In this document: one piece after another, positions 4,681-61,571 of the stretch
Layout: each line of letters begins with the position of its first letter
Numbering within the stretch: position 1 is the stretch's first letter
NCBI GenBank assembly: GCA_031316115.1
Contig: JALDRC010000011.1
Span: 4,978-68,977, forward strand
Direction of reading: 5' to 3'
DNA from: Nitrososphaeraceae archaeon
GTDB lineage: Archaea > Thermoproteota > Nitrososphaeria > Nitrososphaerales > Nitrososphaeraceae
Length of the DNA stretch: 64,000 bases
Translations under genes and position numbers: made by a program
The notes under the pieces: generated by a model
Databases searched by the model: none
What the model was told of the DNA's origin: nothing
The model's input: only the letters and a program-made list of their open reading frames with translations

Positions 4681-5351
4681 ATTTGAAATCTAGTGATGAT
4701 AAAAAAAACTCTTAAATATTTCTTGTGAATCAGATTATCAGTTTGTAAAAAGATAACGATTTCCCCGCTGTTGTTTTGATGGATAATGGTATTAAGATCG
4801 TGTTTGAAAGGTCGGTTAATTTAAGAACCGCAATTAAGTAAATAACCACATATGAATATAACGAAAGAACCTCTATATTTAGACGGTAAGGTATAAATTT
4901 TCAAATTATAATGAAGTATTTGTTACTGACACTAATATAATTATAGTTAAAGATGTAAACGACATTTGATAAATGAAAGGTTTAGTCTTAACCCATAATT
5001 CCAATTATATTATTGTGTCTTGAAATAACTTTATAAGATAGACCAATGACCACCATTCATATATTCAAATCTCATTCAATCCATTTTTAATAAATTACAA
5101 TAATTTAAATGAAAAATTCAATCATTTAGATAATCAATAGTTTATCAAATTTACATATTATCTTTATCTAAATATATTGTAAAAATATAGACTCCAAATA
5201 ACGACTTTGAGTTCGAGTTCCTTCTTCCCGCTGAACTTGTAATCAAAATATTATGAAGCACACGACCTAAAATCACATCTTTCATTTTGTAATTATTATA
5301 ATTTTTTTATTGTTATTGTAGTGTTATATAGGATTTTGAACAATATAAAAT

Positions 5352-6769: not shown

Positions 6770-7287
6770 TTATTTTATTTTTATTTTAGTTTCCTCAACA
6801 GATGTTGGTTTTGTTTCGGTAGCTCTATTTTCAAAATACCATTTTCTACTGTGGCATCTACCTTAGCAGGTATAATATTTTCTGTAAATGGAATTTTTCT
6901 TGAAAACGATTTATAGCTTCTTTCTCTAAGAACGTAGTTTTCTTCTTCCTTTTCATTTTTTTTTTCATCTATGCCAGAAATTGAGAGATATTCTTCTGTT
7001 GCTTTAAGTTCTATCTTGTCCTTTTGTATGCCAGGTACCTCCAATGAAATTATGTATTTATCTCCATTATCTACAATATCACATAACGGAACACGTGTTT
7101 CAATAAAATCCATACCTGGTGTCATTCCATATGTTTTTAAAGGATTCATAAAAGGAGCAAAAAAAGCATCTTCTATATCGTGTCTAAATGTATCAAAGAG
7201 TTCATCAAATGGTCTACGTATCATTACTTGTCTTTTTTGGTCATCTTTATTTTTTGGTGTTATTTGAGAGGATGACATTTTGTTCAT
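6770..7287 (-). CDS. hsp20: Small heat shock protein Hsp20/alpha-crystallin (C-terminal frameshift in this sequence)
   Basis: Alpha-crystallin domain (LEVPGIQKDKI...ATVENGILKIELPK); the alternative frame gives the tail TKPTSVEETKIKIK* ending at 6770. Confidence 0.92.
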
Positions 7288-7423
7288 TATTTAATAATCA
7301 AAATAGATATTTATATCTTACTCACATAATGTGTTTATTTAAAAAAGTTTAATACCAAATTTTTTTAGTAAAATTTATAAATTCTCAATTATATATGTTG
7401 GTAACAAGAGGTGTGTATGTGTA

Positions 7424-9088
7424 ATGTCATCTCAAGTTCCAGTTTTATTATTGAAAGAAGGAAGCACTGAAACTAAAGATAAAGATGCACAAAGAAACAA
7501 TATTACAGCAGCCAAACTAGCTGCAGAAATAATCAAATCTAGTTTGGGTCCACGCGGTATGGATAAAATGCTAGTTGATTCAATAGGAGATGTAACTATC
7601 ACAAACGATGGAGCTACTATTCTTAAGGAAATAGATGTACAACATCCTGCTGCCAAAATGATGGTAGAAATTACAAAGACTGTAGATAATGAAGTTGGAG
7701 ATGGTACTACGTCAGTAGTTGTCTTTGCAGGATCATTGTTAGAGAAGGCGGAAGAATTTATAGCCAGAAAAGTTCATCCTACTGTAATAGTAGATGGTTA
7801 TCGAAAAACTGCAGTAAAAGCAATTGAAGTATTAAAACATGTTGCTGAAAAAATAGAACCTACCGATAAAGATGATTTGAAAAAAATTGCGGTTACATCT
7901 ATGGCATCCAAACTTACATCAAATAATTCTCCAGAACTTTCAGATGTAATTATAAATGCAATATTGTCTGTTGTAGAAAAATCTGATAATACACCATTGA
8001 AAGTTGATATTGAAAACATCAAAGTAGAAAAGAAAGCTGGTAGTTCGATTAGAGATACCAAATTGATCAATGGAATCATATTAGACAAGGAAGTAGTTCA
8101 TGGAGGAATGCCAAAAAGAATTGAAAATGCTAAAATTGCTCTACTTAATTGTCCTTTAGAAATTGAAAAGACTGAATTTGATGCAAAAATAAATATTAAC
8201 AATCCAGAACAAATTCAGAAATTCATAGATGAAAAAAATACGATGTTAAAGGGAATGGTTGAGAAAATTTCAGAAACAGAAGCTAATGTTGTTCTATGCC
8301 AAAAAGGGATTGGTGAAATGGCACAACATTATTTGGCAAAATCAGGAATCTTATCAGTAAGACGAATCAAGGAAAGCGATATGTACAAATTATCAAAAGC
8401 AACTGGAGGTAAACTGATAAACAATCTTAATGATCTAACCAAAGAAGATCTAGGATATGCCAATCTAGTTGAAGAAAGAACAATTGAAACTGATAAATGG
8501 GTATTTGTAGAAGAATGTAAAAACCCTAAATCTGTAACTATTCTGGTAAGAGGAGGATCACAAAGAATCGTAGATGAGGTAGAAAGATCAATGCATGATG
8601 GACTTATGACTCTAAAAGATGTTATTGAATACCCATATATCATTGCTGGAGCTGGTGCCCCTGAGATATTCGTTTCATATAAACTAAGGGAATGGTCTAA
8701 CACATTAAATGGTAGAGAGCAATTATCTGCAGAGAAATTCATTCAAGCACTTGAATCTATTCCATTAACCTTAGCACAAAATGCAGGTATGGATCCTATT
8801 GATAGTCAAGTTCAACTAAGATCTAAAGTTTCAACAAGTAATAAACCAAAATATGGAGTAGATGTGATAAATGCAAAGATATCTGATGTATATGTAAAAG
8901 GAATATTTGAACCACTTGCAGTAAAAGAACAGGTTATCAATGCGGCTACAGAAGCTTGCTCGATGATACTTCATATTGATGATGTAATTGCTGCGGGGGC
9001 ATCTAAGGTACCTTCAGGTCCTTTCCATGGTGGTGGTGTAGGAGGAGGCATGGGTCCAGGAATGCATGGAGGAATGCCTGAGATGTGA
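7424..9088 (+). CDS. ths: Thermosome subunit (group II chaperonin)
   Basis: [26 protein letters not shown] motifs, Gly/Met-rich tail. Confidence 0.97.
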
Positions 9089-17128: not shown

Positions 17129-17650
17129 GATGATTCTTTATTACATGAAGTAAAGAATCTAAAATTATCGGGTAAAATAGAAATTAGTGAAGCATTATTT
17201 GGCGGTCACAAGGGAGGAGGTAAACGTGGATGGGGTACAATTGAGCAAAAAAATCTTGTATTTGGTCTATACAAAAGAAATGGAATAGTAATTACTTTCC
17301 ATGTATATGATAGAAAACATGAAACACTAATTCCGTTAATAAAAAAATATACCAAGAAAGGTAGTTTGTATTATTCTTATGATCATACTGCATCCGCAAT
17401 GCTGAATATGATTGGAAAACACAAAGTAGTTGCACATGTAAGAGAAGAATACGTTAGAGAGGATAGTCATATTAATGGATTAGAAGAATTCTGGAGTTAT
17501 GCTAAAACTTTGTTATATCATTATAGAGGAGTACCAAAACAATATTTTCATCTATATCTAAAAGAAATAGAATTCAGATTCAACAACAGAAACAAAAATA
17601 TCTTCCATATGTCTGCTAATATCCTCGTGAAAACTGTTCCAAAACCTTAG
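17129..17650 (+). pseudogene. Truncated IS1595-family (ISXO2-like) transposase
   Basis: Frame open from 17129: LSGKIEISEALFGG (first catalytic D replaced by S), HINGLEEFWSYAK, YLKEIEFRFNNR. Confidence 0.85.
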
Positions 17651-17824: not shown

Positions 17825-19081
17825 CTAAGCTATTTGCGAATTAAATGTATTTTTCTGTGAATTAGGAGGAACTATTTCTCTTATTTCAACATCATATATA
17901 TCAAATTTAAAATCATTTGCTTTTAAAATCACTATTGGAGAAGCCCAAGTGATTGCTTGACCATCAGTTTGGGCACCACACTTTTTCATATTGTCGCCCC
18001 AATCACCATTATCTATCATCTCATGTATTTTTTTGTATGGTCCTTTTCCACCATTTTCAGTATCTACCCAAGTTTCAAGCTTGACTGCAGTATCATTGAT
18101 ATTGTAAACTATGCCTTTAAAACCTATTATTTTTTCATAAATGTCTCCTACATTCAAACTTTCATTATATCGTTCCCATTCATAATCAATATGAAATTGT
18201 TCCTTTTTCATTCTTACATTTCCATCATCTGAAATATTGTTATGATAACTGGATCCTCCACAGAAAAATTCGGGCTCATTATTTGATTTTTTATATTCAT
18301 TATCTAATTGAGCATGTGTTATAGACCTTGTTACTATTGAAAGTGCATGATGCTCCTTTTCCGAACGTGACGAATCAAGCAACTTAAAAATCAAAGTTGT
18401 CTCTATATTCTTCCAATCAGTTGGCTTGTACCAATATCCTTTATCATTGAGTTTAGAAAAATTCCAACTTTGGATTTTACCTGAGGACATGTTATTTAAT
18501 TTTACTGGGTCATCTGGCAGTATTCCTGCATCCTTGGTATGAATATCTATTCTAGGTCTACCAAAATCTATTCTCCAGCTTCCGTCTTTGTTCTGTTTTG
18601 TGAAAACGTTTGATTTATCTTCTTTATTTACTTGTACTTTATCATTTGGATTAGTTTTATTAAAGTTGTACGTTTGTCCATCTGGAGCTGTTTGGTATAT
18701 TTGAGGTATGTGTAAAATTCTGTAATTATGTTTAAGAATCAGATCTTGATCTGTGTGTGTCCAAGAGACATCGTACTTTTCTTTATTATCTTTATCTTTT
18801 TTTTCTAGATTATATTTACTTTTTCTTTCTTTCTTTTTATCATGGGTTTTCTTTTCCTTTTCTTTGTTTTCAGTATCTTTGGTGTTTTTATCTTCTGTTT
18901 TGGTCTTTGCCCCCTTTTCATCCTTACCTTCTGAGTTATTATTATCTTCATTGTCTGGTTCTGCAAAAATTAGCATGGATTTATTATTAGTATGGTTATA
19001 ACTAATAATAGAAACTAAAAGGAGTATACTTAGAAAATAACATAACCATGCAAAGGTATTTTTTTCACTTTGATGATCCAA
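17825..19081 (-). CDS. Secreted protein with Lys/Glu/Asp-rich linker and conserved C-terminal domain; paralog of 21510-22688
   Basis: Signal anchor, low-complexity linker, DWKNIE, KLETWVD, ITW, VEIREI motifs. Confidence 0.8.
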   Translation of the reverse strand: MDHQSEKNTFAWLCYFLSILLLVSIISYNHTNNKSMLIFAEPDNEDNNNSEGKDEKGAKTKTEDKNTKDTENKEKEKKTHDKKKERKSKYNLEKKDKDNKEKYDVSWTHTDQDLILKHNYRILHIPQIYQTAPDGQTYNFNKTNPNDKVQVNKEDKSNVFTKQNKDGSWRIDFGRPRIDIHTKDAGILPDDPVKLNNMSSGKIQSWNFSKLNDKGYWYKPTDWKNIETTLIFKLLDSSRSEKEHHALSIVTRSITHAQLDNEYKKSNNEPEFFCGGSSYHNNISDDGNVRMKKEQFHIDYEWERYNESLNVGDIYEKIIGFKGIVYNINDTAVKLETWVDTENGGKGPYKKIHEMIDNGDWGDNMKKCGAQTDGQAITWASPIVILKANDFKFDIYDVEIREIVPPNSQKNTFNSQIA

Positions 19082-21509: not shown

Positions 21510-22688
21510 TTGATTTTTAAAAACATAACTTTTATCTTGATACTCATATCTATCTCATTACTAATAGTTCCTTTTATTGACTTTAATGATAATAAATTTG
21601 CATCCGCAAAATCAGACGATGATGATGACGATAAGGAAGAAGATGACGAAGAAGAAAATAAAAATTACAAGAAAAAATCAAGGGATAAAGATAAAGACAC
21701 ACAAGATGAGAAGGAAGATCAACAACAAGGTGATGACGAAAAAGACAATGACAAAAAGACAAAAAAAAGTAAAAAAAATAAAAATAAGAAAGAGTTTGAT
21801 AACTATAGCGAAGCATCTTATGATAGAACTCTAACAGATAATAGAGAAAATGATGCTTATGATATATTTGGTATAAAAGAGATCTATCCAACTTCTTTAG
21901 ATGGCGAGGAATGGTTTTTAGATATGGAAGATCCAGTTGCTGATCCTCAGTTTAGTCCATTCAATATGAATACAAAAGCTACAGATCCAAATTTCAAGCT
22001 CACCCAAAATGAAGATGGCTCTTGGAAACTTAAATCAAAAAATTCTGAAGCTAAAGTCAGGATGGATGTATTTACCACTGATGGATATCATCCAGAAAGT
22101 ATAGAAACCTTTGATCATACAGAGCTGGCTAAAAAAGGATTTATGCAATCAGAAAAAGATTGGAAAAACGTGGAAATAACTGGATATATAAAACTTAACC
22201 ATCGTACCATACCATTAGATGAAGGAAAGTTTACTTGGTATAATAGAGGCGGCCATCATTCGGCTTCCAATCCCTGTGAGGGTGTAGGTTACAAAGGAAG
22301 TATTTATTTTTCAGGTGATTTAAAATTTTCAAAAGAACAATGGCATGTTAGTTACTTTTTTACTGATATTGAAAAAGGAATTGACTCATTAGAGGATAGA
22401 TGGATTGGTTATAAATTTATATCATATAATATTCCAGATCCTGACGAATCATCAGATACATTAGTGAAAATTGAAAGTTGGGTTGATATGGACAATGATG
22501 GAAATTGGATAAAGATGGATGAATACATAGATGATGGAAAATGGGGGAAATCGGGTAAAAGATGCGATGGGGAAAAAGATCAAATAATTACATGGGGAGG
22601 ACCTATTGCCACTTTTAGATGGGACAGGGCAGATGATGTTGACTTTATGGACTTGAGCGTTAGAGAAATTGAACCGCCATATATATAG
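21510..22688 (+). CDS. Secreted protein with acidic/basic linker; paralog of 17825-19081
   Basis: Signal peptide, DWKNVE, KIESWVD, ITWGGP, LSVREI. Confidence 0.85.
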   Translation: MIFKNITFILILISISLLIVPFIDFNDNKFASAKSDDDDDDKEEDDEEENKNYKKKSRDKDKDTQDEKEDQQQGDDEKDNDKKTKKSKKNKNKKEFDNYSEASYDRTLTDNRENDAYDIFGIKEIYPTSLDGEEWFLDMEDPVADPQFSPFNMNTKATDPNFKLTQNEDGSWKLKSKNSEAKVRMDVFTTDGYHPESIETFDHTELAKKGFMQSEKDWKNVEITGYIKLNHRTIPLDEGKFTWYNRGGHHSASNPCEGVGYKGSIYFSGDLKFSKEQWHVSYFFTDIEKGIDSLEDRWIGYKFISYNIPDPDESSDTLVKIESWVDMDNDGNWIKMDEYIDDGKWGKSGKRCDGEKDQIITWGGPIATFRWDRADDVDFMDLSVREIEPPYI

Positions 22689-22721
22689 CATATACTCTCA
22701 ATAAGATTTTCCGCAATCTAG

Positions 22722-22865
22722 AAACAAATTGTTACTAGAACCGGTTTTACATTAATTTATGATTTATTGAAGAAATTGAAGCATCATGCAATTGATAACG
22801 ATCAGACTTTGACCGCGATAGTTAATGATGCATTGTATGAATATCTGGATAGAAGAAACGGATAG
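22722..22865 (+). pseudogene. Ribbon-helix-helix (CopG/MetJ-like) DNA-binding protein, start codon missing
   Basis: Manual translation KQIVTRTGFTLIYDLLKKLKHHAIDNDQTLTAIVNDALYEYLDRRNG*; in-frame TAG at 22719 upstream. Confidence 0.65.
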
Positions 22866-22993
22866 AAAAATAGTAGAATCATTTCATTCTTTGTTTTGGA
22901 GATATTATTAGATCAATATAGGTACCAATAGTTTCTATTATCAATGGAAATAAACTACTTTTATCTAATGCTATATGTAAAACCATTAAACCC

Positions 22994-23074
22994 AATATAT
23001 CCATAGACAAGTCAAATCGGATGGTAGGTAGAAAGGTTTGCACTCTACTATCATTTCTCTACCATCTGGTTTTT
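22994..23074 (+). ncRNA. Cassette 1
   Basis: Stem 23014-23027/23059-23072 (AAATCGGATGGTAG/CTACCATCTGGTTT, 2 G-U), ends TTTTT; start site inferred. Confidence 0.6.
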
Positions 23075-23132
23075 AGTATTTGGTTAATTTTTAAATTAAT
23101 ATCTCATTCGAATAAAACTCATTATATCAATA

Positions 23133-23185
23133 GATTGGTAGATATGCTAGATGAATATAGTCCTAAGTATTTTCTAGTATCAATC
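23133..23185 (+). ncRNA. Cassette 2 (degenerate)
   Basis: GATTG/CAATC and ATGCTAGA/TCTAGTAT stems at the expected periodic position; no clear T tract. Confidence 0.35.
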
Positions 23186-23233
23186 GTAATAAATCAGTCT
23201 TATCTAATATTGCGTGTAAAACCAAGGATTTGC

Positions 23234-23302
23234 AGGGCTTACCGATGGAATCTATACCAGATGGTAGAAAAATTCCTTATAGTGTCTCTACCATCTGGTT
23301 TT
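23234..23302 (+). ncRNA. Cassette 3
   Basis: Perfect 13-bp stem ACCAGATGGTAGA/TCTACCATCTGGT; shares TTATCTAAT-N6-TGTAAAACCA and an 18-nt 3' end with cassette 1. Confidence 0.6.
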
Positions 23303-23361
23303 AATATTTTTTTTATTTTTTCTAAAACCACTAAATATTTTATTTACCATGATATATTGCC

Positions 23362-23446
23362 GGAAGGCAGGAATACAATCTGGAGGGTAAGATAGTAGTT
23401 TAAGCCATATTGGTCATCACTGCTATTATCTTACTCTCTAGTTTTT
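23362..23446 (+). ncRNA. Cassette 4
   Basis: 19-bp stem 23380-23398/23423-23441 with 3 G-U pairs, then TTTTT. Confidence 0.65.
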
Positions 23447-23497
23447 ACTAACTTTTATCATAAAGTGCAAAATATTATGATTCACATAAGATAATAC

Positions 23498-23575
23498 AGA
23501 GTGGTGTATCATAGCTCGGAGAGCAACAATGTAGAAGTTTAGTATCCTCTTTCCTTCTACCTGCTCTCAAATTTT
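23498..23575 (+). ncRNA. Cassette 5
   Basis: GAGAGCA/TGCTCTC outer stem and GTAGAAG/CTTCTAC inner stem. Confidence 0.6.
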
Positions 23576-23615
23576 ATCGAACTTATAAATATTATATTTA
23601 CCATGTTATATTACC

Positions 23616-23696
23616 AATAAGGTAGTAAGACGTTCCGAAGGAAGGCAGGATAGTAGTCAATCAATCCCTTGTTCTACTATCTTACTTTCCAATTTT
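23616..23696 (+). ncRNA. Cassette 6
   Basis: 17-bp stem 23640-23656/23674-23690 (2 G-U, 1 mismatch), then AATTTT. Confidence 0.65.
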
Positions 23697-23750
23697 CACT
23701 AACTTTTATCATAAAGTGCTAAGTATTATGATTCCCTTAAATTTATACCT

Positions 23751-23822
23751 AAAAAAGGTGCGCCACAATGGGAGAGCATTAAGGTAACAGGAACACGAAT
23801 TGTCCTAACCGCTCTCCAATTT
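23751..23822 (+). ncRNA. Cassette 7
   Basis: GGAGAGC/GCTCTCC outer stem with inner GGT/ACC and AGGA/TCCT. Confidence 0.6.
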
Positions 23823-23875
23823 CCTCTAACAATTATCTTAAACCGCTAAATATCATGATCACCATAAAGTTGTAC

Positions 23876-23959
23876 AACTGCTAACGAATACCTGTTGGAG
23901 AGTAAGAGATCATTGGTAGAAGTTTAGTTCCTGACCTTTCTTCTACTGGCTCTCCAATT
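23876..23959 (+). ncRNA. Cassette 8
   Basis: TTGGAGAG/CTCTCCAA outer stem; inner GTAGAAG/CTTCTAC as in cassette 5. Confidence 0.6.
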
Positions 23960-23996
23960 ATGATATGATTTATTATGCTCGCAAACGTTACCAATT

Positions 23997-24083
23997 ACTT
24001 CATACAAATCGAAGGATAGTGCCATAGGAGAGAGTAGGGACGACCAAGTCTGTCGACGATTCATTCCCTATTCTCTCCATTTT
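23997..24083 (+). ncRNA. Cassette 9
   Basis: 14-bp stem GGAGAGAGTAGGGA/TCCCTATTCTCTCC (1 G-U), then ATTTT; may also terminate the convergent operon. Confidence 0.55.
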
Positions 24084-24093
24084 AATATACTAT

Positions 24094-24555
24094 TTATTCC
24101 AAGTCTGGACTGTTATCAGAATAACTGATTAGTTTAGTCCCTCTATCAATTCGTTGCTGGATATCTGTGTCCAATTCCTCTGGTTCCAGTCTAGACTTTC
24201 TATTACTATTATTATTTCTATTCCTAGGTTTTATGAAGTGTTCTACCTTTAACCTATTAGAGTCATGAATTATTTCTGGTACGTCTCTGAAGCCAGCAAT
24301 CGTGCTTTCTTGCTTGCCATGTTCTACTGGATATACTGTTCCGCATTAATAGTATTGCAACCAACTTTCAAAGTCTGCTGGAATAGAACCATTTATGTAT
24401 TCATGGGGTTGATATATTCTAGGTTTTAGTTCCTTGTATGGAAATCCAAAGGTTCCACAGTGGACACAATATCTTTTATCTTCCGATGACTCTGAAGTAT
24501 AATAATTATCAGTTAGTGAAGTCCAATATTCTATACGTTTCTTAATTCTAGGCAT
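24094..24555 (-). pseudogene. Zn-ribbon/Zn-finger protein with one internal TAA
   Basis: YCVHCG...WLQYY*CGTVYPVEH; frame continues after the TAA at 24346 to a TAA at 24094 (~153 codons). Confidence 0.6.
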
Positions 24556-24592: not shown

Positions 24593-26094
24593 CTATACTT
24601 CGAACAGCACACCTTTACAGAGAAGCCGAAGGCTGTCAAGATGGTCATTGTGAACTGTAGATGTCTTATCGAGATTAAATTCTTAGGCGTATGCAATCTT
24701 AAATGATCGAATAAGTTTATCGTACTTGGGATCAATTGCCAACTTTTGTTTTGTAAGGAATTGGTATAAGTGTTGTAATATAGTTTTATGTTCTTTGCCA
24801 AAGTTTACTGGAATTATACAATCGTCTTCAATATAGATATCTTTTACTTTTTCCCAGTCTAGGCTTTCGCCGTATTTACTCTTACATTCATTTACTGCTC
24901 CTCTGTTAGCACCATCTACAAACCATGAAAGATTAGGGATCGGGGTATGCAATTGGAACATATCATTTGCTATTTCACTAGGTGTTTTCTTGTCATATTC
25001 CTTACCTACTATTATTCTAACAATTTGTAGTTGTGGATCTAGTTCTGCAATGAATAAGGCCGTTACTGAACTATTAAATCCAAAGTCAACACCACCTATA
25101 TGCAAATCAAATGGGTTTGTTGGTAAATCTTTATACTGAATTCCTAATTGAATCACTTTATCAATATCAACCAGTGGAAATACATTTCCTATCTTCCCGA
25201 GATATTTGAGGTTATATTCACGTTCAAAATACGATTCATTCCTTTCACGTTCTCTTTGTATAATATCAGTGTCAAATATTTTCCCAAGTTCATTATTATA
25301 ATCTAGAAATATTTTATGAAAGAAATCTTTGAATATTTCGTTCTTCTCTATCCGTGCAAATAGATAATCTGGTCTATTGGGTGTGCTTGCCAATATGATC
25401 TTGCATTTACTTTTCTCCTCATAGGATTTTATCACATATTCTAATTCGTTCTGCTCTGCAGGCTCAAAGTAATCGGCCTCATCTTTGAAAAGATAGGAAA
25501 CATCTGTGTATCCTCTTAAATCCTGTATTCTTTTGGTAGGAAATACTTTGATCCAGGTATTGTTAAGCCATAATTCAGTATATTTGGATTCAAATTGTAT
25601 GTCGGGAAATTTCTTTTCAAAAAATCTTGTAAGACGTATTTTATGTTATTGCTTAATTCTTCCCTAGTTCCAGATACTAAAAATATAGATTTGCCATCCA
25701 ATTCATTTGAAGACATGCATTTCTAACCCAGATATCTCAGAACAAGTTCTGTTATTCCGATACCTCTGGCTTTCTTAATCCAGATATGTTGATTGTTTTC
25801 TATTGCATCTATTACTAATATCTCATAGTCAAATAATGGATATTCTTGTCCATTTTTCTGTGGCAATCCAATCACATGGTTAAAACAACAATTCCCATTA
25901 TTCTGAATATATAGACTTTTATGTTTAATAATATCAGCCCAGATCCAGAACTGCTTCTGGCGAAACTGCTCTGTGAAGCGTTGGGATTGCTGCTGGGCTG
26001 ATATATGAGTGATGGTTGCAGGTTTGAGATATCCGATATTCCTACTTACCGCGAGATTGTCGGTAACCAATCTCGCAAGATCCTTAAAAGTCAT
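24593..26094 (-). pseudogene. Terminase large subunit-like ATPase/nuclease
   Basis: Walker A-like IWIKKARGIGITE, Walker B-like YLFKDEADY, ASTP coupling motif, RNase H-like GGVDFG and HNDHLDSLR; interrupted by TAG (25723), a 1-nt frameshift (~25620) and TAA (24683). Confidence 0.85.
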
Positions 26095-26123: not shown

Positions 26124-26549
26124 TTAAAACTTGGTTGTCAAAGTGTTTAATTCTTCTTCGCTGGTGAACGAATCCTCTAGTTTTTGTTTAGTATCTTCTA
26201 CAAACTTTATAGAGTCATTTAGCATAGCGTTAGTTAGCAAGTCCATTTTAGTTTGAATAGAATCCTTTGCTAATGATAATGCAGTTACTTTACCTTTGTT
26301 ATCTTGCGTTTTCTCTGCTTGCGCTACCATGATAAATGCTTCTTTAATTATTTCTTCAATCCCTTTTACTGCCTTATCAAACTCATATGGTAATTTTTCA
26401 TCGATCTGATTCTTTATTGCTTCTTTTGCCTGTTCTCTTAGAAATTTTATATCTCTAGATACTGTATATTTTGATAATTGTAGTATTTGACATATATCAG
26501 ACTGTGTGAATCCTTTAACTGCCAATTCTTGTGTTCTTGTGTTAGTCAA
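26124..26549 (-). CDS. HTH plus coiled-coil protein directly upstream of the terminase-like gene (candidate small terminase subunit)
   Basis: QELAVKGFTQSDICQILQLSKYTVSRDIKFLR HTH; position in operon. Confidence 0.7.
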   Translation of the reverse strand: MTNTRTQELAVKGFTQSDICQILQLSKYTVSRDIKFLREQAKEAIKNQIDEKLPYEFDKAVKGIEEIIKEAFIMVAQAEKTQDNKGKVTALSLAKDSIQTKMDLLTNAMLNDSIKFVEDTKQKLEDSFTSEEELNTLTTKF

Positions 26550-38121: not shown

Positions 38122-38799
38122 ATGGGATTGTACAAGGCTGGAGATATAACTAAGTTTTGTTTTGTCTTCGTGTTCTTGTTATTACTTATCCTTGTTTTGA
38201 ATACAAATTTCACTTCTGTCAATAGTCAAGAAGATAATACAGAAGAGATCAAAAAACAACTAAAATATTCATATACAGATAATCCTGATATTGATCTGAC
38301 GATCGAAGGAACATCAGGTGATGATGAAATAAGGGGAACCGAAAAGAATGATGAAATAGATGGAAAAAATGGGAATGATAAATTGGAAGGATTTTTTGGT
38401 GATGATAAGCTCTATGGGGATGATGGCAATGATGTTTTGATAGGGGGTAAAGGTAACGACCTATTGGATGGAGGAGATGGCAATGATACATTGAAAGGAG
38501 GTAAAGGTAACGACCTATTGGAGGGAGGAGATGACAATGATAATCTTAAAGGATATCAAGGAAATGATACGTTGATTGGGGGAGATGGGAACGACAGATT
38601 AGAAGGTGGTTTGGGAATTGATATTCTAGAAGGTGGTGAAGGTGCAGATTTTTTTATTTGTGATGCTGATGATAAGATAGTAGATTTCGAAAAAGAAGAA
38701 GGTGATTTCTTAGCTGAAACATGTAAAATCAATACAGAGTCCAACGTTAAAAAAAATTCAACAAAAACACCTAATTTCACTTTAAGATATCTTGGGTAA
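38122..38799 (+). CDS. Secreted RTX/hemolysin-type Ca-binding repeat protein
   Basis: Multiple GG.GND.L nonapeptides. Confidence 0.9.
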
Positions 38800-49551: not shown

Positions 49552-50272
49552 GACTGTGTTAATTTAAGATAATATTCACCTCCTTTAATAAAAAATCATG
49601 ATTATTATTTACTATCATATCATTGTACATAGAAACAAAGAATTGTATCCAGTTATACACATGAAATAGATTACAGTATTCTTTGATACAAGGATAATAA
49701 TCATCAAAACTTTCTATTCTGTCTTTCAAAAACTGGTTTACTCTTTCCATCAAATTTTTCTCTATTGAAGAATGCAAATAGTGTTTTAATCCAATTACGT
49801 CACAGGCTTGATCATACCAGGTACCACCATCTGTATAGACGGTATGTTTTCAATATTTTGATACAAGCGATCGAATGAATTTCTCAGCAACAATCATATT
49901 TCTTTCTTCAGAGAGATAGATTCCAAGCACAGAACTGTGAACTGGTTCAATACAAATCCATAACCAATAATGCTTGTTACCAATCTGAATGATTGTTTCA
50001 TCTAGAATAAAAGCCGTTACTCTTTTTCTTTTGTAAACCTGACAGGATCCAAACCTCTGAATCCAGTTCCAAACAGCAACATAACTCCTTTTATCATCTC
50101 TAAATATCACTAATGCTTTAGATGTACTACGTAAACTTAAACCAAGAAAGTATAGATAAAGAGAATACATAACAATATAATTATGTGTTCTATTTCTTTC
50201 AAATCTTATTTTATTCATAATATATTTAGAATGTTCTTATCTATAGCTTTTACTGCTTAAGTTAACACAGCC
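49552..50272 (-). mobile_element. IS6-family element (~721 bp) with terminal inverted repeats and 8-bp target-site duplication
   Basis: IRs GACTGTGTTAATTTAAG (49552) and CTTAAGTTAACACAGCC (50256-50272), 15/17 match; CAAATTAA at 49544-51 and 50273-80. Confidence 0.92.
49559..50218 (-). pseudogene. IS6 transposase with a single nonsense codon
   Basis: ILDET...SKY*KHTVYTDGGTWY...MERVNQFLKDRIESFDDYYPC; TGA at 49850 is in frame with the downstream ORF. Confidence 0.9.
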
Positions 50273-60935: not shown

Positions 60936-61571
60936 TTAATTGTCCTCAGTTTCTTTTGCCCCTGACAACCCCTCATCTTCATATATACATTCTCCTGAAA
61001 TCTTGTCACCTTCACTAGAATCAAAATCTTTTATTTCATCACCAACATCACAAATGAAAGTATCTGCACCCTTGCCTCCGCTTAAGGTATCGTTTCCAAC
61101 TCCGCCGTTCAGTACATCGTCTCCAGATCCTCCCTTTAAACTGTCGTCTCCTCTCATTCCACTTAAATCGTCATTCCCTTCTCCGCCATCCATCTTGTCA
61201 TCACCATTTTCACCTTTTAACACATCATTCCCAGGACCTCCTTCAATTGTATCATCTCCATTTCCTCCCCTCAAAGTATCATCCCCTTCTCCGCCATCTA
61301 TCTCATCATTCCCATGAGCCCCTTCTAAAACATCGTTTCCCTCATTTCCAAATAACTCATCATCACCAGATCCTCCCTTTATTTTATCATCATTTTCTGT
61401 TCCTTCTATTGCCACACTTACCTTGGGTTTAGGAATTTGTCCAGTAGGAATCTGATCAGTTTCATCCTCATCATCATTTTGAGAATATGAATAATTAGTG
61501 ATTGAAAAAAAATTCAATAATAAGAGAATAGAAAATGCTAAAACTCCAATCAATGTAGTTTTTTTGCTCAA
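60936..61571 (-). CDS. Secreted RTX/hemolysin-type Ca-binding repeat protein
   Basis: Multiple GG.G.D.L repeats; paralog of 38122-38799. Confidence 0.9.
   Translation of the reverse strand: MSKKTTLIGVLAFSILLLLNFFSITNYSYSQNDDEDETDQIPTGQIPKPKVSVAIEGTENDDKIKGGSGDDELFGNEGNDVLEGAHGNDEIDGGEGDDTLRGGNGDDTIEGGPGNDVLKGENGDDKMDGGEGNDDLSGMRGDDSLKGGSGDDVLNGGVGNDTLSGGKGADTFICDVGDEIKDFDSSEGDKISGECIYEDEGLSGAKETEDN

Follow-up and report, generated by a model that had tools for sequence, protein, structure and literature searches.

A 1.1-kb hairpin array on the + strand of a 64-kb window of Nitrososphaerales DNA (contig JALDRC010000011.1; array at positions 22,990-24,085) is probably a battery of tandem genes encoding small, structured, non-coding RNAs of a lineage-specific family, transcribed from that strand. 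The window, meaning the whole stretch of DNA analysed here, is chromosomal with a GC content of ~29%, and the array within it possesses eight strong hairpins (U1 and U3-U9) and one weak hairpin (U2), spaced 119-139 nucleotides (nt) apart and all in one orientation. As a set of hairpins, the array is real and lies far beyond what chance would produce. Each of its units would comprise a TATA-like box, a largely unpaired leader of ~20 nt (longer and conserved in the U1/U3 type), a 45-65-nt hairpin whose 5' arm is rich in purines (GGAGRG...GUAG) and whose 3' arm is rich in pyrimidines (CUAC...CYCUCC), and a short U run, and we infer one transcript per unit. To our knowledge, the small regulatory RNAs of the Nitrososphaerales, comprising ammonia-oxidising and related archaea, are almost unknown, and we are not aware of any archaeon in which hairpin RNA genes with promoters of their own have been described as a tandem battery. 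Should the units prove to be real RNAs, they would represent a new RNA family with a clear structural signature at a strain-variable locus. Identifying a partner protein or targets could uncover a further level of regulation, or of mobile-element conflict, in an ecologically important group, and the array's coordinates provide concrete sites for RNA end mapping.

The outermost pairs of the nine hairpins begin at 23014, 23133, 23256, 23380, 23519, 23640, 23768/71, 23894/5 and 24027, which is where an initial annotation of this DNA had placed nine cassettes at the same spacing of 119-139 nt. Eight of those cassettes stand as strong hairpins, but the count of nine is doubtful, as cassette 2 resembles the upstream sequence of U3. 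The stems take one of two forms. In U1, U3, U4, U6 and U9 they are long, near-continuous and gapless, measuring 13-20 bp (13-19 bp in the initial annotation's reading of the longer stems), while U5, U7 and U8 are two-helix hairpins with a 6-7-bp foot, GGAGAG(C)/(G)CTCTCC, followed by an internal loop and a second helix. The stem feet read GGAGAG/CTCTCC or CCAGATGG/CCATCTGG on either strand. The spacers between units align at 60-84% identity in direct-repeat families ~125 or 250 nt apart, and the units are paralogues; they would stem from tandem duplication, partly in two-unit blocks of ~250 nt, with subsequent divergence. Small open reading frames (ORFs) within the units, including a 124-aa ORF at 23021-23395 and several on the - strand, were rejected as coding, as they match no family and cut across the hairpins.

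Preceding the array is U0 (22902-22955, +), a conserved upstream element (TTAGATCAATATAGG...TTTCTATTAT) that forms a weak palindrome with TATA-like boxes and was missed in the initial annotation. The units follow on the + strand, each given here with its free energy of folding (dG, in kcal/mol) and its z score. U1 (22994-23078) consists of a leader, a 19-pair hairpin at 23014-23072 belonging to the GATGGTAG family and a T5 run (-21.2; z -3.11). U2 (23126-23195) is a weak palindrome at 23133-23185 with an AAGTATT box at 23165 in its 3' half (-13.6; z -2.25). U3 (23234-23305), found as an inverted repeat, has a TAATATT box at 23206, a leader, a perfect 13-bp hairpin at 23256-23299 and a T run (-22.3; z -3.11). 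U4 (23333-23447) begins with an AAATATT box at 23333, followed by a leader from ~23362, a 20-pair hairpin at 23380-23441 and a T5 run (-30.0; z -4.72). In U5 (23470-23576), an AAATATT box at 23470 and a leader precede a two-helix hairpin at 23519-23568, with GGAGAGC in the lower and GTAGAAG in the upper stem, and a T4 run (-22.6; z -3.41). U6 (23587-23697) has an AAATATT box at 23587, a leader, a 17-pair hairpin at 23640-23690 and a T4 run (-21.1; z -3.11), and U7 (23721-23824) has an AAGTATT box at 23721, a leader, a hairpin at 23771-23817 recovered by a pattern match to GGAGAGC/GCTCTCC, and a T3 run (-18.0; z -1.94). U8 (23848-23962) combines an AAATATC box at 23848, a leader and a hairpin at 23894-23958 with a poor T run (-22.2; z -1.92). 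Finally, U9 (23970-24085), the last unit, possesses a TTTATTATG box, a leader, a 14-bp hairpin at 24027-24078 and a T4 run (-30.5; z -4.48).

All nine units, with dG values of -13.6 to -30.5 kcal/mol, fold better than 200 dinucleotide shuffles (z -1.9 to -4.7), and their combined Stouffer z of -9.35 settles in the array's favour the question of whether its hairpins are any more stable than shuffled DNA. When the whole 64 kb was folded in sliding 70-nt windows, 10 of the 17 windows with a dG of -20 kcal/mol or below fell within the array's 1.1 kb. The GGAGAG...CTCTCC pattern, one of those by which the initial annotation had grouped the stems into related families, together with two spacer motifs, occurs in the array only within the 64 kb, where ~0 copies are expected by chance.

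Several lines of evidence point to the + strand RNA, rather than to the DNA, as the molecule whose structure has been kept. With stems defined in a strand-blind manner, in which G·T and A·C were treated alike, the + strand pairs include 15 G·U and 4 A·C (two-sided p = 0.019); in cassettes 1, 4, 6 and 9 alone the counts are 11 G·U and 1 C·A, an even larger excess than the eight and one originally reported. As a DNA palindrome should be symmetric, this asymmetry argues for selection, or at least transcription, on the + strand. U1, U2, U4, U6 and U8 fold 3-14 kcal/mol better as + strand RNA, and no unit folds much better on the - strand. The difference reaches 7 kcal/mol in U1, which has 4 G·U pairs, and U4 gives -30.0 on the + strand versus -16.0 kcal/mol on the - strand. 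The T runs and AT-rich boxes are likewise placed for + strand transcription.

The two arms of each hairpin are also matched to one another. MAFFT failed to align the 3' arms of such divergent hairpins, so the duplex energy of each arm with its own partner was compared instead with that of mixed pairs across 11 hairpins (eight from the window, one from locus L037 and two from contig L175, both described below). Own-arm duplexes averaged -23.0 kcal/mol versus -15.1 for mixed pairs, and none of 200,000 permutations reached the observed mean. Read by hand, the arms of U4 and U6 differ by one compensatory double change from G-C to A-U, three single substitutions that pass through G·U and one pair broken to C·A, while those of U1 and U3 differ by two G·U-type changes. 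The purine content of the 5' arm is 69-93% in all 11 hairpins, and GTAG is paired to CTAC in most of them.

Strain variation follows the same course. A U4 variant from a soil metagenome carries 14 changes in the 22-nt loop but only 2 in the 40 nt of the stem, both of them G·U to A-U switches or the reverse, and single-nucleotide polymorphisms (SNPs) in the stems of other strains keep or add pairs (23032 A>G, giving G·U; 23569 A>C, adding a G-C pair); U5 also has strain variants. As pairing is kept while the loop is rewritten, conservation resides in the stem and the loop is left to drift. Together, the G·U bias, the own-arm matching and these loop-changing, stem-keeping variants lend support to the RNA-level selection on the + strand that the initial annotation had proposed.

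The boxes in front of the hairpins are suggestive of TATA-type promoters, a reading to be taken with the 29% GC of the genome in mind. The motif AA[AG]TAT[TC] occurs on the + strand at 23165, 23333, 23470, 23587, 23721 and 23848, and the last five boxes lie 47-53 nt ahead of the next stem, embedded in longer conserved motifs that are unique to the array within the window. The AAATATT string also occurs ~30 nt before the start codons of several protein genes in the window, which fits an archaeal TATA box, and a start ~28 nt past the box would yield the ~20-nt leader that is left unpaired in the folds. Runs of 4-5 T follow U1, U3, U4, U5, U6 and U9; a bacterial promoter and terminator scan was uninformative, as the hairpin loops exceed its limit. 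Thus, where a box upstream of most cassettes and a T-rich end had been described, the box holds at a set distance in five units and the T run in six, but the run is weak in U7 and U8.

The region upstream of U1 and U3 is different from, and longer than, that of the other units. U0 is 74% identical to 23148-23224, that is, to the 3' half of U2 and onward, and 22902-22955 and 23148-23208 are both homologous to L037 5180-5247 (83% and 79%, respectively; 83% over 5180-5233), a conserved element that precedes a hairpin in that locus. A related sequence, TTAGACCAATATA, follows the ribbon-helix-helix (RHH) gene in L175 as well. U2 is the weakest hairpin of the array, and because its 3' half is homologous to both U0 and the L037 element, cassette 2 more likely serves U3 as promoter or operator sequence than forms a separate unit. 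The U0/U2 element, an imperfect palindrome over TATA-like boxes, may be an operator, and such a role for U0/U2 alone is compatible with RNA genes in the rest of the array.

Evidence of transcription comes from a mangrove metatranscriptome (X22), in which a 203-nt contig matches 23819-24021 at 100% identity and covers all of U8. Across a 20-kb stretch of the window, coverage in X22 was confined to the array and the genes for Hsp20 and the thermosome (both within 6781-9088). Chaperone genes are usually among the most highly expressed, and the presence of array RNA beside only these two makes DNA carry-over less likely and suggests that the array RNA is abundant. The Hsp20 and thermosome contigs carry 4-12 mismatches, pointing to an origin in related strains, whereas the array contig carries none. 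Three wastewater metatranscriptomes were uninformative, as the organism was barely present and its thermosome gene uncovered, and none of the RNA runs contains the L037 unit.

Homologous units occur in two other loci. The RHH homologue P0241 led to L175, a 1.7-kb contig with the order RHH gene, hairpin units, zinc-ribbon gene and the end of a TerL-like (large terminase subunit) gene. In its flanks, identity to the window is 87% and 70%; its units, two clear hairpins and a weak one, are unlike those of the window in sequence but share the same promoter piece; one of the hairpins folds at -24.4 kcal/mol on the + strand versus -14.5 on the - strand. L037, whose TerL-like protein is ~60% identical, has one unit, 4.7 kb upstream of its TerS-TerL module; here the conserved upstream element leads into a hairpin whose arms are unrelated (dG -23, z -2.7). 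A long perfect tandem repeat (GAATTGTTATTGTTT, >20 copies) also occurs at L037 5925-6270, in or beside an ORF and ~600 nt from the hairpin unit. In metagenomes, the U4/U6-type 3' arm, with its tail and the next promoter, is found at 5-8 times the depth of its flanks, with many different left flanks and loops, and some contigs show joints that skip units; the family is therefore multicopy, and arrays differ between strains. The locus would be a fixed but fast-changing one within a mobile-element relic, with 8-9 units here and three different ones in L175.

Wider searches placed bounds on this distribution. Among 80 Nitrososphaerales loci with a TerL-like gene (about 1 Mb of DNA), an nhmmer spacer profile, blastn and a GTAG/CTAC hairpin descriptor recovered no array and, as a sole unit, that of L037; an energy-only cluster scan of these loci was too noisy in higher-GC genomes. 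Downstream of TerL in two of the loci inspected (L002 and L048) are ordinary genes and no array, and none lies downstream of a 78%-identical homologue of the 392-aa neighbour gene. Pattern scans of IMG/VR gave nothing or single chance matches, a scan of JGI metagenome contigs gave 21 single matches, of which those inspected were due to chance, and GenBank phages yielded no match to the array.

A number of observations weigh against a battery of individually transcribed RNAs. TATA-like strings are common at 29% GC, and several alternative boxes lie upstream of U1 and U3, so the transcription starts are guesses, while a typical archaeal terminator would need longer T runs than those behind U7 (3 T) and U8 (2 T). 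The X22 contig passes both predicted ends of U8, from the U7 foot to the U9 foot, and therefore demonstrates that the region is transcribed rather than that discrete unit-length RNAs exist; the contig has a depth of 2.8 and carries no strand information, and it may conceivably stem from carried-over DNA. The independent ~70-90-nt transcripts of the initial annotation are thus not borne out by this sole RNA evidence, and the weak T runs of U7 and U8 also speak against them. The G·U excess could partly reflect strand-biased C>T mutation, although this would still require transcription of the + strand. With homologues in only three genomes or contigs, the co-variation is drawn mostly from paralogues, and several leaders resemble degenerate 5' arms (the U4 leader that of U6, the U9 leader that of U1), a likeness that fits duplication debris as well as a seed. 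Finally, a search for antisense targets gave no match of at least 16 nt, either within the window or across some 1 Mb of related DNA; the longest matches, of 15 nt, are at chance level.

Some of these points would be accommodated by one long precursor that is cut into hairpin units, in the style of CRISPR, TIGR stem-loop or microRNA clusters, with boxes that are not separate promoters. The X22 contig across the predicted promoter and terminator of U8, the weak T runs after U7 and U8 and the RHH gene upstream on the same strand are all in keeping with such a precursor. It is nonetheless rather unlikely, for a promoterless spacer offers no evident reason to keep both the AAATATT box sequence and its distance of 47-53 nt in five units, U1, U3 and U4 are followed by T5 or more, and the locus contains no processing enzyme or partner gene. 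Moreover, standard metatranscriptome libraries lose RNAs of <100 nt, so read-through molecules are the likeliest to be seen. A decaying tandem repeat of no present function, in which the hairpins are left-over terminators or promoters of lost small genes, would be in accord with surrounding protein genes that are all pseudogenes and with the failure to find a target, partner or wide conservation. Such decay is improbable, given that the hairpins stay intact and stable while their sequences diverge, with own arms matched and stem changes that preserve pairing, that hairpin units are kept in L175 between flanks only 70-87% identical, and that array RNA is seen alongside only Hsp20 and thermosome transcripts.

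The remaining alternatives treat the array as DNA. GTAG is a hallmark of REP (repetitive extragenic palindromic) elements, and its pairing with CTAC in most stems, the multicopy state in metagenomes (U6 3' arm and tail at 5-8 times flank depth, with many left flanks) and the variable content between strains would all suit REP- or MITE-like (miniature inverted-repeat transposable element) palindromic repeats, selfish or recognised by a transposase, that accumulated in one intergenic gap. Yet this is quite improbable in view of the 15:4 ratio of G·U to A·C on one strand, where a DNA palindrome should be symmetric, the single orientation of all units, and the absence of any copy from the other 63 kb of the window, and from about 1 Mb of related loci save L037. 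Neither a RAYT nor a Y1 transposase is encoded in the window, and the copies vary in the loop while keeping the stem, unlike young MITE copies, with GTAG inside the stem rather than at its 5' foot. It is conceivable, too, that the hairpins are double-stranded DNA sites for neighbouring proteins, either pac/cos-type packaging signals for TerS-TerL or operators for RHH or helix-turn-helix (HTH) proteins, as the array adjoins TerS-like, TerL-like and RHH genes and, upstream of U1 and U3, a TATA-like box lies within a conserved imperfect palindrome that could serve as an operator. For the array as a whole this is very improbable: 80 other TerS-TerL loci and the provirus Pro-Nvie1 have no adjoining array, the stem sequences vary between units beyond what a single DNA-binding protein could recognise, the G·U asymmetry points to RNA instead, and the TerL, RHH and zinc-ribbon genes are broken while all hairpins are intact.

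If the array is indeed a battery of small RNA genes, its units could act in several ways; the initial annotation had put forward antisense regulators, guides, decoys or antitoxins as possible roles. A sibling small RNA (sRNA) model, in which the single-stranded 5' leader is a seed for mRNA pairing and the hairpin provides stability, a 3' end and a handle for protein, seems plausible, if somewhat short of an even call. A conserved stem that binds and titrates a protein encoded elsewhere can be put forward tentatively, and further options, for instance small RNAs excised from the stem, are more doubtful. Conservation extends to the stem, the foot motif and, less strongly, the leader, while the loop is variable, which is why a leader seed or a protein-binding hairpin is favoured. 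As the loop changes freely from strain to strain, it is probably not the functional element, and loop-mediated antisense action seems the least likely route. Duplex energies of the loop with the leader and with the start site were within the range of shuffles. That the hairpins outlast the decaying genes of a mobile element suggests that the host, or relatives of the element, still use them. It is decidedly unlikely, though intriguing, that the array is the RNA half of an undescribed RNA-guided or RNA-decoy system, with a variable ~20-nt 5' segment, a hairpin handle (GGAGRG/CYCUCC foot, GUAG/CUAC), a promoter per unit, turnover between strains and a partner protein elsewhere, engaged in mobile-element or virus-host conflict. 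Its role would then be as in CRISPR or TIGR arrays, with a different layout.

The array appears not to belong to any described family. A search of the whole window with Rfam 15 at gathering scores gave no matches, in line with the initial annotation, which had not recognised the units as a described RNA family, and the best sub-threshold matches in 22500-24500 had E values of 0.83-4.2 and lay at least 28 bits below the cut-off. ARAGORN found no tRNA or tmRNA (transfer-messenger RNA) genes in the window. The window also encodes no Nop, Cas, Argonaute, integrase or RAYT proteins.

Likeness to CRISPR arrays, or to solitary-repeat RNA anti-CRISPRs, extends to a periodic, non-coding layout, strain-variable content and a location in or near a mobile element. 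The period of CRISPR arrays is 60-75 nt, however, versus ~125 nt here, and their repeats are identical. The array has no short identical repeats, its direct repeats being the 60-84%-identical spacer and promoter segments, and a CRISPR array was rejected. No cas gene is present among the ~45 ORFs of the window by Pfam and PADLOC (only a 16-bit 'CasR' HTH match), and the best match to an Rfam CRISPR direct repeat had an E value of 1.7, so the claim that the array is not CRISPR-like stands. The stems are too long and varied to mimic one single CRISPR repeat.

The TIGR-Tas stem-loop arrays (Faure et al., PMC12045711) are the nearest published tandem arrays of variable palindromes, and their defining features are a Tas protein with a Nop domain and a pair of box-flanked spacers in every loop. 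As in the present array, their tandem units are bounded by 'variable but consistently palindromic sequences', and TIGR-Tas arrays are expressed and occur in viruses, proviruses and archaea (PMC12045711). Unlike them, the array has loops of 10-24 nt, too short for two spacers with their boxes, no recurring C/D boxes, and a promoter-like box for each unit. A Nop domain (PF01798 or related) was found neither in window ORFs of at least 100 aa nor in the small ORFs beside the array, and a TIGR-Tas assignment was rejected, for although palindromes bound the units, the 64 kb encode no Nop protein and the loops share no recurring pair of motifs.

Guide RNAs and DNA repeats were considered as well. Box C/D guide sRNAs were rejected because the only snoRNA (small nucleolar RNA) matches are on the - strand and at chance level (E = 0.83 and 2.6), and H/ACA guides because the sequence after the stem is AAUUUU or GGUUUU, with no ACA, and most stems lack a pocket. 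An integron attC array was also rejected, as the window has no integrase and the stem feet lack the RYYYAAC...GTTRRRY core sites. Like REP elements and BIMEs (bacterial interspersed mosaic elements), the array consists of short imperfect palindromes that are clustered in intergenic DNA, multicopy and recurrently marked by GTAG; unlike them, its pairing is strand-asymmetric, it has promoter-like boxes and one orientation, its GTAG lies inside the stem, and it is not dispersed in the window. No further copies were found in the 64-kb window.

The nearest known layout appears to be that of the bacterial sibling sRNA arrays, among which LhrC1-4 of Listeria is a tandem example. NsiR1 (2010, cited in PMC4734099) is another. 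The present array shares with this type head-to-tail units of ~100-140 nt, which would each have a promoter of their own and a short RNA ending in a hairpin and a U run, and its copies likewise diverge. The present array differs from NsiR1 and LhrC in being archaeal, with a TATA-type box and longer hairpins (13-20 bp) that differ strongly between units. What its units have in common is a stem motif rather than a seed, the set of units varies by strain, there is no sequence or Rfam kinship, and its discrete transcripts are predicted.

The protein genes flanking the array (RHH, zinc-ribbon and TerL) are all broken, while every hairpin is intact. Just upstream is a CopG-like RHH gene (22722-22865, +) whose N-terminus has been lost through a TAG at 22719-22721; its 57-aa, 91%-identical homologue P0241 has an ATG start and a Pfam RHH_1 match at E = 0.0012, and 9 of 12 strain SNPs in the RHH gene are synonymous. 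Converging on the array from the other side are - strand genes for an HTH (TerS-like) protein, a TerL-like protein, a small ORF and a zinc-ribbon-like protein. The zinc-ribbon-like gene (24094-24555, -), which has 70% nucleotide identity to L175 1059-1438, is a pseudogene, with an in-frame stop, by three-frame translation, where L175 reads CYQCG; it gave no Pfam, PHROG or PADLOC match. The L175 copy is broken too, at another place.

The TerL-like gene (24683-26094, -; phrog_2, E = 1.6e-11) is split into three ORFs of 123, 66 and 250 aa, where full-length relatives have 410-430 aa, and an Illumina-based Logan contig confirms the stop codon at the end of the 123-aa part. It is 28.6% identical to the TerL of provirus Pro-Nvie1. 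Immediately upstream of the TerL-like gene, where a small terminase subunit would be encoded, lies a gene whose product has weak HTH matches (26124-26549, -); about half of related loci share this arrangement. The HTH and TerL-like module occurs in many copies in Nitrososphaerales metagenome-assembled genomes (MAGs), with unrelated neighbours and no portal or capsid gene. The terminase-like operon described in the initial annotation is therefore real, but its association with the array looks incidental and is probably not functional, because none of the 80 other TerS-TerL modules adjoins an array and Pro-Nvie1 lacks one as well. A terminase pair that behaves as a repeated mobile module is unusual: at least seven copies lie on the 1.8-Mb contig CAVOHZ010000010.1, with many more in the TH526 and GS_HAYS MAGs, and a similar element with TerS and TerL only has been termed enigmatic (PMC6563490). 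Within the N-terminal fragment of the TerL-like gene, at 25931-26005, is a 12-bp perfect stem (ATATCAGCCCAG/CTGGGCTGATAT) around 45 nt (dG -33 kcal/mol, z -5.8); it may represent a palindromic insertion or have a regulatory or recoding role.

Other genes of the window include those for the thermosome (7424-9088), Hsp20, eRF1, leuA and NHL and GSDH repeat proteins. Their nearest relatives are in MAGs labelled Nitrososphaerales or Nitrososphaeraceae, and DNA near-identical to the window was found in wastewater, sediment, soil and mangrove metagenomes. The window has undergone several insertions, as seen from its transposase fragments: a short ORF at 17366-17650 (+), which matches phrog_13752 (function not known) and which we take, without tool support, to be IS1595-like, and a DDE_Tnp_IS240 fragment at 49850-50218 (-). 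Two paralogous secreted proteins, encoded at 17825-19081 (-) and 21510-22688 (+), possess low-complexity N-terminal halves rich in Lys, Asp and Glu and a common C-terminal domain; their family is large in the Nitrososphaeraceae, with 728 matches at E <= 1e-20, and some records call it 'carbohydrate-binding protein'. Finally, two RTX-type calcium-binding repeat proteins (HemolysinCabind, E about 1e-45) are encoded in this archaeal chromosome, at 38122-38799 (+) and 60936-61571 (-).

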